A stretch of DNA of 64,000 nucleotides from Amoebidium appalachense (lineage: Eukaryota > Protista > Ichthyosporea): positions 6,945,794 through 7,009,793 of the forward strand of contig CAVNZM010000010.1 in the NCBI GenBank assembly GCA_963693365.1. Reading direction: 5' to 3'. This document shows positions 14,998 to 64,000 of the stretch, piece by piece (within the stretch, counting starts at the first letter, position 1; the number at the start of each line of letters is the position of its first letter). The notes beneath the pieces were generated by a model, which worked only from the letters and a program-made list of their open reading frames with translations, had not been told where the DNA came from and did not search any database. A program made the translations under genes and the position numbers.

Positions 14998-17900
14998 TTA
15001 GGACGGTGTCTGTGGCATCCGCCTGCTCCAGCACGGCTGCTGCATCTCCCGGTATCTCTGGCTCCAAAACAACGGGAATGTCCTCTGAGCCCTCCTCATC
15101 TGCCAGTTCCTCTTCAGTCAGGTCGGGAAGCACATCCTCAACCTGTGGCTGGAGCCCAGCTGCAATCAACTTCTCCTCTTCCAGGCCTTGAAGAGTTGCC
15201 CTACGCAGGTCCATGCCGTCCCAACGTCGAACCTTTTTTGCCACCTGACCAAAAAAGGTCGTTACCAAACTGCCCCCCCCCCCCCCCCCCCCCCCCACCA
15301 CCACCACCACCCTTGTTTCACACACACACTGCCCCACACACACACACACACACACACACACACACACACACACACACACACACACACACACACACACACA
15401 CACACACACACACACACACACACTTAACATACACACACATACACACACAACAGACCGTACACACCGTCACATATGCACACACACAAGACACGGGCACGGA
15501 CACCTATATATCCACTGACCTGCAGCATGAATGTGGAGTTCTTGTTGTAATACGTAGTATCTACATATGGTAAGATCTTCTCAGTTTGTGTTATGTTTCA
15601 GTTCATATGCTTAGTGTATATGCCACACTCCTATTATGTAAAATGAAGCATCGATCTCCGACATGCTTGTATACTTGTAATCGTGTTGTATCGGCTCTAA
15701 TCGTGTATTGTAATATCGATTAGAATATTTATATGTGTGTACACGGATCCACCCACTCAGGGAGAGACGTGTACATGTTCGTGTGTACATAAATATCTCT
15801 GGTTATAGTTATGCTATTGCTATCTTGTTTGTTGATCTGTGCTCTCTTTTCCTTCCTCTTTCTCCTTCCTTATTTTCTTTTCTTTCTCTCTTTGTCTTCA
15901 TGTGTATAATCGTATTTCTTTTCTACTAATATATGTTAGGTAGATTTGTGTTACTTAATACGTGTTCATTGGACGGTAACACACTTAGGCTACACTTAGA
16001 ATAGCATGTGTGTTTAGACTTCATTAATTTACTTTAGTTTTCATGTGTTGCCGGGCTTTAACCAATCATCAAGGTTAAGTGTGATATGTCTGAGTCTTTG
16101 CAGTATGTCATAGGTTAGAACTTCCTTGATGATGACACAAGTTGACCTTAACTAGTGTCTGTGTCCTATCGTGTGCGTCTCCGCGTACCGGATCTCTCTG
16201 AAAGCAATTGGTTCTTAGTGATTGGTTTCTATTAGAGATAGATCTGATTTCCGACTGGTCGGAAATCATGTATGGATTGGACTTAGAGGAATTTCAGGTA
16301 TTTATTCGAAGATCAGAATAAATTCAGTTCAGTCGTGTCTAAACATTGATGTCTGTTGTGTACACTGCTCCGATCGTTCCGTGTTTTGTTGTTGTGTGTG
16401 TCTGTGGTGTTTTCACACTGCACCACTGTGTCTCTGCTTACATCCCAAATACTTATAAAATTTAACAGGTTATGGGCCCAGATGCACGCTCCCTACACAC
16501 ACCTAGACCTAGCGATCGTTAAATTCCTGGTACACATCATAGCTGTGGTCAGCTCCTCATGCATCTTGAGGCTGTGTACATCCATCCCCGGCGTCCGTCC
16601 GTAACCGGTCCCACGTGACTCCCCTTGACAAGATCTGACTCATCTTGACAAGAGCTTTTGTCACGCCTTGACACCCGTGACATCCTCGCAAGTTCAAATT
16701 CCAGCTTGCACTCCTTCCAGCTCCGTCCTGGTTTCTCTCCGTCACGCCAAACCGTCCTCCACCCTTGGTTCTGCAATCGCGCTCCAAGTTCCTTGACACT
16801 TCACCGACGTGGTCTCAACCGCGCCGCCCTGTCTACCCAGGCCTGAGGATCCTGCATCGAAATCCCATTCCATCCGATTTCGAACCCCGTCGACCCGCAT
16901 TCGAATATAATTTCACACCCCGTCTGCGTTCCAATCGACGATAATTTGACACCCCGTCTCGATCCGACTTGACCATCATCCATCAAGTCCATCTGAAGTA
17001 TCCAAATTCGGTACTTCTTTCCAGTCTACCGTGTTCCACCCCGTCCAAGCCCTTTGTGCTTCCCTCCTCCCTAGGAGTCCCGACCCTGAGTCCCTCCAGA
17101 ACCGTTTACCGTGTCCAACCCGCTTCCTTCCAGGATTTCCAACCCTGTTTTCGGCCATGTCTCCCCTTACCGTGCCGTCACTGTCAATGGCCCCCTCACA
17201 TTCCATTGATCTGCCCTGCATTCCGGCAGCAGTTTCCCCCCATCACGTGGCCAACCTCGTCGAGATCCCAGCTACCACCAGCTCTGCACGGGCAACAGTT
17301 CCCCCTGCAGCTGTTTCCCCCCATTACCACCCGACCCCGGCCAGCAAGACATGCTGCCAGGTCCCGTCGTTCCCATCCACGTTTCCAGCCAGCTTGCTGT
17401 GCTGCCTTCCCCCGTTTCCAAAGCCCCTGCATCCGACCCAGTTAACCTCCTCCGTCCGGAATTACCTGCACTTGACCCTGCCTCCGTCGTGCCTCATCCC
17501 AACCCAAATTCCGTGAAGACCTACCCCCCTCCCTGTTCGGGCTTTCCCAGTCACCCCGAGCAGCAAGCACCCTCGACGCCCCCTCCAGCGAATTCCAAAC
17601 TACGACAAGTCTACTCCTCCTTGGTCATCAATCCCTCCACCGGTCGCCCCACCACGTGTGGCTACCCACGACACACCGCATCCAAATGCCGTGACCCCCG
17701 TTGTCCTGTCTACCGTTTGCGTCCTCGATACCCCCCATCCCCTATCCTCCCCCCCCCAGCCTGAGCGGGGATGTTGTCGTCAACTATGTCGAGTCTGCCA
17801 ACAACTTGGCTGACATCCTCACCAAGCCTCTGCCAGGTCCCAGCCACGTCACTCACCGTGACCGGCTCTGTGTGCCCGACCTTGTGCAGTGATCATCGTG

Positions 17901-61700: not shown

Positions 61701-64000
61701 GGGGGTCCACCGGGAGCCTTGGGTGCGTGGGGGAATAGGGTTTTTGTGCAGGTGCGGCGGAAGGTAGGGCCATATCCTTGCAGAACTGAATGGCCCTGTG
61801 CACGTAGCACTGTCCCGGCCGGTTCTCCTAGACAATCTTTTCCTTTCCGGGTTCCAACACGCTCCGTGGCCCCACCTTTGGTTGCTGCAGCCAGGCGTGG
61901 GGAAGAAGGTATGCGGACCCTGGGGCGCCGTGGGCAGGCTCGAGAGCCAGAAAACGAAAGCACTGGGCAAAGGAGTCTTCGTGGGTGCCGGGCCGAAAGA
62001 AGGTGCCGGTGCCCCGGGGATGCACCCATGCAGGCGTCTGGGACAGGGCCACGATGCTGCTGCCCGGCACCTTGTGGCCAATCAGATGGGCCGCCTCTCT
62101 CTCCGTCGCATCGCCCGCATTCACGGCGTGCCCCTGTGCCTTGAGGTAGGGGCCATAGGCATGCACAGTAGGCCCGTTGACATGCATATGCTCTGGCCTG
62201 CTATCTGACCCCTCCGTGGCCTCCCGATGCCCCCGTGGCTCCCCTAACCCGTCTGCGGGCCACTTACCACGGTGGGCGATAATAACGCTCCGCCCTGTGT
62301 CAAGCCTATTAAAGCACTGCTCTCCGACATCACCCACATGCTCAGCGTACGTATACACCACGTCTGCGTTGGCTGATCCAAGCTCAGTCTTGAAATCAAC
62401 CACCGGCAGCTGGGAGCCAGTCAAGCCAATCATATTGAAGGCCACTGTGTACATGGACACCACGTCAGCAAACCACACCCCTGCCCATACCAGTTTACAC
62501 ATCGACTCAGTGCACATCTTTCTTTTGGTGACAAAGCCCAACGGGGGATGGAAAGGGGGGATGGAGGGAGAGTTCAAAGGAAAAAGGCACCATCACATTC
62601 ACTGAGTGCAACAACTTCTGGGTCATGTCAACTTTTCGATTTCCAGTTTGAATAATTGCCTGTATAAATGTTCACGTTTTATTTTGCCGCAGGGTTTATG
62701 TGCACATGTGCACATGTGTCGGTCTGTGTGTCCTTCTTCTTTTCCCGTTTTCGACTCTCTCCCCCTCGTAATCCTAACCCCCCCCCTCCCCCTCCCCCCT
62801 CCCCCTCCCTTTATCCACACCTCCCCTGTGTGTGTCAGTGTGTCCCTGGGTTATGGGTGAAGAACCAGCTAAGAGACACCAACCTCAGAAGCATGCCGTG
62901 TCCTTCCCCCGAGCACTCTGATGTCTGCGGTGCATTGGAAGGGGCTTCAATTCCCGCACAATCGTGTCCCTCCTCCGAACACTCTGGTGTCTGCAGCTCT
63001 GCTGGCTTTGATAGCTGCGATAGCATGGAAGGGGTTTTAGTTCCTGCACATCACCAATAAAGCAGCCAGGTTTATGTCCAGATATATGTGCATTGCAATC
63101 AGTAGGTGCCAGCAAAGGTCCAAGCACCCAGGCAGCCGGGCAGGCAAGCAACATGCACGTGCAGCCATAAGCACGAGATGCACTGGGACCCCACAGGAGT
63201 GCAACACATTGTACACCGGCTGATGGCCATGCACATTCACAGCCCCCCCCCCCCCCCCCCCCCCCCCCCCCCCGCCCGCCCCATTTTCTCTCCCAAGAGC
63301 CTGCTGGCCCCATAGCGGCCTTCTAAAAATGTTCAGTATTCACCATTATCCCCCCCCCCCCCCCCCAAAAAAAAAAAAAAAAAAAAAAAAAAGGGGAGGG
63401 GGGGGGGGGGGGGGGGGGGGGGGGGGGGGGGGGAGGGGAAATAAGACCACTTCCACCACCCCCCCCAAAAGACGAAAATATAAAGTAAAATAGACTGCAT
63501 TTCTCCCTTTACCCCCCCCCCCTCCCCCCCCGTTCCCCCCTCCCCCCCTCCCCCTTTTCCCTAACCCCCCCTCCCCTCCCCCTTTTTCCTAAAACCCCCC
63601 TCCCCCCCCCCCCCCCCCCTCCCCCTCCCTTCCCCCCCCCCCCCCAAAAAAAAAAAAGAAAACAAAAACAAAAAAACCTAAACAACCAAGAAACTTACAC
63701 CGACACCCACAATGACACGCACACAAGGAGACACACACACACACACAAGCAAAAAAACAAAAAAACCTCTGCCATGCCCCTCCTCTCGCCCACAGACTAC
63801 CCCACTTACCCCTTACCCACTTAACTCTATAAGCAGTCAGACACGTGTGGTGGATGGCGTGACCGAGCGGGGCGTGCATGTTCTGTGGAGCCAACGACCA
63901 AACATTGCTCACCTCAACCACCAGCACGTCGTAATACACACACTGGTCAGAGACGTAGGAGACCTGCTGCTCCAGCACCCCGGCCCCCACCACCTCTCCC

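Follow-up and report, generated by a model that had tools for sequence, protein, structure and literature searches.

The 64,000-nucleotide window of the Amoebidium appalachense genome analysed here (GenBank assembly GCA_963693365.1, contig CAVNZM010000010.1) probably contains a stack of nested mobile elements, in which a 20.8-kb transposon has a Plavaka transposase gene on one side and a KDM4-like JmjC gene on the other, carries a predicted fusion gene and likely modifies itself against silencing. The structure of the element is the part of this explanation held with high confidence, and self-modification, the likeliest role of the cargo, is put forward tentatively and by analogy. The 20.8-kb element is an independent polymorphic insertion and not part of a Plavaka element; the Plavaka and JmjC genes are its insertion site, not its carrier. 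An earlier note on this DNA had assigned all of these genes to one large Plavaka element, a claim that is abandoned here since the methylase/dioxygenase gene resides in a separate element with an empty site in another strain, while its broader claim of mobile DNA with chromatin- and DNA-modifying cargo is borne out.

Ends, empty site and polymorphism of the 20.8-kb element

Contigs from sequencing runs were aligned to the window, a comparison that covers the window to 51370 except 27.5-33.7 kb. Two runs are DNA (X3 and X6) and two are RNA-like (X9 and X20), the latter read as RNA on the strength of their GT..AG joints; a further run (X18), with a depth mostly below 10 outside repeats and little coverage, was excluded. 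Contig depth does not equal copy number and was not used for ranking expression. The window differs from X3 and X6 at many sites and by two insertions, and thus represents another strain or copy. The element and its parts are as follows:

23438-44220, terminal inverted repeat (TIR) element of 20,783 bp with ~39-bp TIRs and a 4-bp AGAT duplication
23434..23437, plus strand, left target-site duplication AGAT, read from the sequence and from the 4-letter overlap in the empty-site contig
23438..23476, plus strand, left TIR, beginning with AACA; contigs break at 23437/23438 in X3 and X6
44182..44220, minus strand, right TIR, ending with TGTT
44221..44224, plus strand, right target-site duplication AGAT
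24478..35261, minus strand, cargo gene with dioxygenase-like (34143-34773), ParB/DGQHR-like (30426-30638) and methylase-fold (26752-27900) parts and a low-complexity tail
39390..44004, plus strand, spliced transcribed gene with a Cys-rich N-terminus (39417-39737) and a broken frame, covered by RNA contigs

A 20-mer of the TIR occurs at exactly two sites in the window, in inverted orientation (23443 and 44196), and two copies were reached in none of 100 shuffles. In X6, a 1209-letter contig (depth 216.7) matches 22664-23437 with its letters 30-806 and 44221-44633 with its letters 803-1209; both parts overlap by four letters, AGAT, and thereby give the empty site. The X6 rows concerned were taken as one contig from their identical length, depth and strand. 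An X3 contig likewise ends at 23437 with 7 letters remaining, and two X20 contigs cross the left TIR at 23438 and enter dissimilar sequence (median 236 letters); the X20 rows at 44220 are probably the same contigs aligned in reverse. From the TIRs, the AGAT duplication, the empty site in X6 and the other flanks in X20 it follows that the 20,783-bp element is an independent, polymorphic insertion. A TA duplication was dropped as a candidate, since the empty-site contig overlaps by four letters. Mapping of ends and duplications and comparison between strains, both suggested in the earlier note as checks, thus yielded TIRs, AGAT and an empty site, yet these ends delimit the 20.8-kb element and not Plavaka, and the combination of AACA..TGTT with a 4-bp duplication differs from Plavaka-type termini and duplication. 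The TIR pattern had no match in metagenome contigs.

Contig depth in X6 is mostly 350-590 over the arms of the element, compared with ~105-111 at the methylase exon (26.8-27.5 kb) and at 34.3 kb, and changes stepwise near 26 kb and 34.4 kb, a pattern suggestive of relatives with internal deletions. The gene at 39390-44004 gave no Pfam or NCBIfam match above cut-off, and its look-alikes in the ESM Atlas are unnamed eukaryotic clusters (0.91-0.93); it may be a transposase relic. Diverged tandem duplications, 80-95% alike, are present at 35660-36665, 37264-37658, 38567-39220 and 43439-43615, between the two divergent genes of the element and near its right end; they are candidate binding arrays, similar to those beside the red-algal gene PAG3.

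A predicted gene with dioxygenase, ParB-like and methylase parts

The methylase exon of the cargo gene matches PF01555 (E 5.2e-9) and is 100% identical to P0001, a protein from the EukProt transcriptome of Amoebidium parasiticum, which aligns to the minus strand of the window in seven exon blocks that follow in order (30292 to 24478). Its motif order is that of beta-class methylases, with motif IV before motif I, and the S-adenosylmethionine (SAM)-binding motif DxFxGxG is present, the D and G being invariant in 9/9 aligned rows, two of which are without the motif IV region. A search of 1.84 billion representatives returned 108 matches, all of which, besides two from Amoebidium, have E 2.8e-10 or weaker and cover the methylase part only. 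A metagenome scan with one relative (P0005) added two loci (L002 and L003) with 31-37% identity.

The dioxygenase exon contains, as read from the sequence, HxD, H and R in the usual order, and its ESM Atlas look-alikes (0.92-0.96) are 2-oxoglutarate (2OG)-Fe(II)/PhyH (2OG-FeII_Oxy_3) or unnamed clusters, the top cluster being unnamed. Pfam gave no TET/JBP match for it, and its single-sequence fold (pLDDT 37.6, no fold match) is too poor for a TET/JBP comparison. A homologue search at longer lengths found nothing, and the single viral-scan match (L001, 35 residues) was judged to be chance. The exon with IDGNHR resembles the DGQHR family at E 0.0027, far short of the cut-off. Of the introns modelled from the dioxygenase exon up to where P0001 starts, 8/8 are GT..AG, and the resulting 604-aa join is free of stops, with 130 more open codons upstream of the modelled fusion; furthermore, dioxygenase contigs with exon boundaries were found in X9 and X20. 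A fusion of dioxygenase, ParB-like part and methylase in one gene is therefore predicted from the sequence. In addition to the repeats, duplication, empty site and other flanks, transcription and splicing of most exons were observed for the element.

Two further proteins of one transcript component (P0004 and P0111) carry an N-terminus with what we take to be an OTU-like motif (Peptidase_C65, E 0.34) ahead of the cargo gene's last exons. The element family may thus swap cargo, and these joins could also be transcript-assembly chimeras. The region 25050-25900 shows many small deletions relative to the transcript proteins, with 35 gap letters in one X6 contig; these are probably consensus errors near homopolymers.

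The insertion site: Plavaka transposase and KDM4-like JmjC genes

Two divergent genes flank the element:

14998..23233, minus strand, Plavaka transposase gene with 8 exons, matching Pfam PF18759, its last exon cut by a gypsy long terminal repeat (LTR) ending at 14997
45446..49975, plus strand, JmjC gene with a KDM4-like JmjC exon at 45873-46818, left out of a spliced form in which 45725 is linked to 47306

The transposase named in the earlier note is confirmed by two PF18759 matches above cut-off (E 8.8e-21 and 1.6e-10) and by an open gene model of 812 aa, assembled from 9 pieces with GT-AG introns once a 3.8-kb LTR insertion is skipped. Readable in this model are an N-terminal C2H2 finger, catalytic residues of the DSD/D/E type (SD, TD and a late E) and CHQC; compared with the pattern C(2)C + H(3-4)H, CHQC is there and a single His stands at the place of H(3-4)H. 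Because the gypsy LTR cuts the last exon, the left end of any Plavaka element lies outside the window.

The JmjC exon matches PF02373 (E 3.2e-14), and its best solved match is KDM4C (E 5.3e-18), with which the HxE..H iron ligands, the 2OG lysine, a second lysine and the Cys/His zinc ligands all align; the metal, 2OG and zinc roles of these residues are presumed by us. The Pfam scan, which covered 39 large and 145 small open reading frames (ORFs) of the window (184 in total), found JmjC only and no JmjN, PHD or Tudor companion, and a homologue search with the exon at near lengths found nothing. In X9, a GT..AG joint (45723>47304) skips the JmjC exon, another contig keeps it by reading on unspliced from exon 1, and both forms continue into the shared exons without a frame change. 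In its behaviour the JmjC exon resembles an insertion in the first intron of the gene; the other spliced form goes without it, and at the nearest acceptor exon 1 is out of frame with it. Contigs of X9 and X20 contain ~200 letters at 48261/48262 that are missing from this copy, and the gene is thus broken downstream of the JmjC domain here. The KDM4-like JmjC domain of the earlier note, with its PF02373 match and ligands, is therefore intact, whereas the gene that contains it is ~200 nt short compared with the two RNA runs.

With the nested element removed, the start codons of the Plavaka gene and of exon 1 of the JmjC gene are divergent and ~1.4 kb apart, a join shown directly by the X6 contig. 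In X6, depth is 217-245 for Plavaka, 216-267 for JmjC and 111 for the methylase exon; in both X3 and X6 the two flanking genes are equal and at ~2x the methylase exon, a depth compatible with a haploid holding two copies or with one diploid locus. Right of the JmjC gene, neither a terminus nor a change of flank was seen to 51370, and none of six TGATG candidates at 50.3-51.4 kb could be paired. A GATGTC-rich stretch with small hairpins lies beyond the gene at 50150-51140. The GATGTC clusters at 50.2-51.1 kb hold 9 of 46 matches (46 were reached in 2 of 100 shuffles), no terminus is tied to them, and they may represent a small repeat of their own or else an array in subterminal position.

Neighbouring genes and LTR elements

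The remaining features of the window are:

15543..19361, plus strand, non-autonomous copia-type LTR element in a Plavaka exon, with near-identical ~925-bp LTRs and a 5-bp duplication GTTCT, identified by self-BLAST
53394..56392, plus strand, intact 4-exon gene of 283 aa with hydrophobic N-terminal segments and a coiled coil, missing from the earlier note
58167..64000, minus strand, multi-exon gene that continues past the window, with C2H2 fingers in the last exon, an in-frame stop near 61830 and an 11-aa tandem repeat

Positions 1-14997 consist of a gypsy element with a nested copia element (Pfam; LTRs, GAGCC duplication). The copia element (4771-12885) is young, with near-identical LTRs and the GAGCC duplication inside gypsy; its gag-pol and reverse transcriptase are in different frames near 8.2-8.6 kb, and an internal duplication containing a short tandem unit lies in its 3' region (10421-11743). 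The element at 15543-19361 is a relative of it (LTRs 72-77% alike) with a largely deleted coding region, and is missing in three of the four runs (empty-site joint 15536>19361). Within LTR retrotransposon coding regions, CG in GCG/CGC context is scarce, at 7/91 (1872-4437), 11/247 (5770-10176) and 10/75 (12963-14100), compared with an expected 43-49%; the share in other genes of the window is 29-53%. GCG/CGC is the CG context with the most methylation in Amoebidium, and the depletion in LTR coding sequence, which the available text of Sarre 2024 (PMC11244446) does not mention, is possibly evasion at the sequence level or deamination.

The gene at 53394-56392 has only sub-threshold coiled-coil Pfam matches and, judged by its sequence, looks like a host gene. 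In the last gene of the window, the 11-residue tandem repeat (33-bp unit) occupies 61300-61700, right after the in-frame stop. The earlier note had described this gene as JmjC-like with C2H2 fingers; the C2H2 exon stands, whereas the second JmjC-like domain is a motif resemblance with no database match, and the single-sequence fold has a pLDDT of 30.7. The chromodomain-like relic of that note was not recovered, chromo families matching 0/39 large and 0/145 small ORFs, a search that a relic of <50 codons between stops would escape. Its observation of decaying genes is correct in that lesions are present, yet they belong for the most part to this copy or assembly alone: most runs lack the LTR insertion, a frameshift at 34685 and indels at ~25.4-25.9 kb. 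The 39 + 145 ORFs also contain no tyrosine recombinase gene and no giant-virus core gene or marker, and an Rfam scan of the window gave 0 matches. Toxin_8, Zip, PRIMA1 and other weak Pfam matches were below cut-off and were taken as compositional.

Alternative explanations and proposed mechanism

A single giant Plavaka element holding all listed genes between 15 and 64 kb would account for their presence within 50 kb of a near-intact Plavaka transposase, and such cargo exists on giant Plavaka elements of red algae. We nevertheless regard it as very improbable, as the methylase/dioxygenase gene lies inside an independent insertion that is missing from the site in X6, no end of Plavaka type was located, a gene that is intact and host-like lies at 53.4-56.4 kb, and the chromodomain and second JmjC are unconfirmed. 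Less far-reaching is the proposal of a smaller Plavaka element with a head-to-head KDM4-like gene that would strip its own H3K9 methylation, the TIR and LTR elements being later passengers. The 1.4-kb spacing of the start codons in the absence of the insertion, the open transposase frame, the intact catalytic residues of JmjC and the equal depth of both genes in X3 and X6, ~2x that of the methylase exon, are compatible with such a pair, present twice in a haploid. Equal depth fits one homozygous diploid locus as well, however, and both linkage and site are the same in the compared strains, neither a terminus nor an altered flank appears to 51370, the left end falls beyond the window, and the spliced form skips the JmjC exon, so that this pairing appears possible but rather doubtful. 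We lean slightly towards the JmjC gene being a fixed host locus, either a KDM4-like paralogue or a giant-virus remnant, with Plavaka as an unrelated neighbour in a transposon pile-up. According to the available text of Sarre 2024 (PMC11244446), JmjC-only multi-exon KDM4-like genes occur in the Amoebidium genome, some of them among host genes. Transposons are reported to make up about half of the genome; three other elements are nested here (self-BLAST), the introns show the host poly-C pattern, and 24/50 CG of the JmjC exon are in GCG/CGC context, which is chance level, compared with 4-13% in LTR retrotransposon genes. The tight divergent spacing with the Plavaka gene speaks against a fixed host locus.

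For the 20.8-kb element itself, several results weigh against a functional self-modifying transposon. No transposase core was found in it by Pfam and NCBIfam scans or among Atlas look-alikes. Beta-class methylases carry the catalytic consensus (D/N/S)PP(Y/F), and motif IV of the cargo gene is DIPT, which has no aromatic residue of DPPY/F and may be inactive. Pfam, NCBIfam, PDB and homologue searches gave no match for the dioxygenase exon, and a two-sequence ParB profile did not place the cargo-gene model above shuffles. No transcript was seen across the whole fusion, the transcript-derived proteins all starting downstream of the dioxygenase; of the methylase/dioxygenase fusion in the earlier note, the PF01555 exon, the dioxygenase motifs with their Atlas look-alikes and the open 604-aa join stand. 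Finally, this copy carries 4 extra letters at 34685 that cause a frameshift and are missing in X6, X9 and X20 and partly in X3. The cargo might hence leave silencing unaffected, either as passenger DNA that was captured or as a DNA-binding protein devoid of catalysis, a reading that draws on DIPT and the frameshift, on the depth step, by which most copies appear to be without the middle, and on the OTU-like cargo swapped in. Conversely, other strains keep ~1,300-1,500 codons open over many introns, HxD..H..R and the SAM-binding motif are preserved, motif IV is similarly degenerate in the metagenome relatives P0005 (SIPF) and P0010 (EIPY), and the same domain set recurs on red-algal transposons. 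On balance, we consider passenger cargo a minority possibility to be taken seriously.

For the nested stack with a self-modifying transposon, the following mechanism is proposed. The element would move by cut-and-paste with a transposase supplied by another copy, because none is intact here, and its family members would differ internally, as the depth steps and the OTU-like transcripts on the same last exons suggest. By analogy with PAG2 and PAG3 of red algae, the ParB-like part may locate the element, the methylase fold would write N6-methyladenine (6mA) or N4-methylcytosine on element DNA, and the dioxygenase would oxidise a methylated base. Such self-marking would keep the element out of 5-methylcytosine (5mC) silencing; 6mA is reported to mark transcribed genes in Amoebidium. 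A bolder version, which we consider unlikely, is an undescribed DNA-transposon lineage, in a host closely related to animals, in which one writer-plus-oxidiser enzyme, made up of a dioxygenase, a ParB-like sensor and an amino-methylase, puts a private DNA mark on the lineage's own copies, which swaps cargo such as an OTU protease, and which is nested in a Plavaka element with a splice-switchable KDM4 demethylase.

Relation to known elements and implications

In Bostrychia as well as further red algae, giant Plavaka elements carry PAG2 (PF01555 methylase and SET) and PAG3 (ParB-like and 2OG oxygenase), and the available text of that study proposes self-modification and describes cargo genes hopping between transposon families (bioRxiv 10.1101/2025.02.11.637652). 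The element described here is similar in size (20.8 kb compared with 17-19 kb) and in cargo (PF01555, PhyH-like 2OG oxygenase and ParB-like parts). It differs, in a comparison made by domain class, in that one predicted gene holds the 2OG, ParB-like and methylase parts, in this order and lacking SET, and in its non-Plavaka carrier and opisthokont host. Transposons of fungi with TET/JBP genes, including PlavakaB, also combine a 2OG dioxygenase with a DNA transposon and are proposed to counter methylation silencing (Kojima 2025, PMC12730594); in contrast to these, as far as the available text describes them, the dioxygenase here has no TET/JBP match, and AACA..TGTT with 4 bp differs from TGT..ACA or CATCA..TGATG with 2-3 bp.

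For Amoebidium, Sarre 2024 (PMC11244446) locates the JmjC genes within giant-virus insertions and at a small number of host loci, and describes Plavaka giant repeats as tandem clusters poor in introns, with tyrosine recombinases and with hypermethylation outside CGC/GCG. The earlier note had pointed to large Plavaka repeats with JmjC genes from this genus; the giant repeats are indeed described, whereas the JmjC genes sit in giant-virus insertions and not in the repeats in the available text. Shared with that work are the genus, a Plavaka transposase at the flank and a JmjC-only multi-exon KDM4-like gene, and the paper makes an anti-silencing proposal. Unlike in the giant repeats, the genes here have 3 to 15 or more introns, and self-BLAST found no repeated gene. 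Short TIRs, a 4-bp duplication, and shared ends with differing interiors from which the transposase is often deleted are features of the Sola2-type elements DFa and PPa (Bao and Jurka 2013, PMC3627910), from which the present element departs in that AGAT is one position off their AWWT as given in the available text, and in that no Sola2 or other transposase family matched within it. Prokaryote-type adenine methylases on mobile elements of 6mA-using eukaryotes are likewise known from DAM-carrying retrotransposons (bioRxiv 10.64898/2026.05.21.726589); as described there, these are LTR/DIRS elements with Dam-type NPP, whereas a DNA transposon and a beta-class fold are found here.

Literature on Plavaka and JmjC, on N6-adenine, 2OG and ParB accessory genes and, since 2024, on Amoebidium transposon methyltransferases contained, in the parts available and with Repbase and subscription journals outside its coverage, no such element or one-gene fusion. 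What the available sources leave as new are the one-gene fusion, the non-Plavaka carrier and the host lineage; the cargo classes, whose combination the earlier note had taken as the new part, are already known from red algae as two genes on giant Plavaka elements.

Proof that transposons carry anti-silencing functions exists for few systems, and the methylase/oxygenase cargo of red algae is a prediction only. Amoebidium, by available accounts, can be cultured axenically, its 5mC and 6mA have been mapped, and methylation inhibitors elicit a response in it; comparing full-length with deleted copies of the polymorphic element, and occupied with empty sites, would provide built-in controls for an effect of the cargo on the element's own DNA marks. 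With this element the cargo set reaches opisthokonts, and a predicted fused enzyme becomes available for biochemistry.

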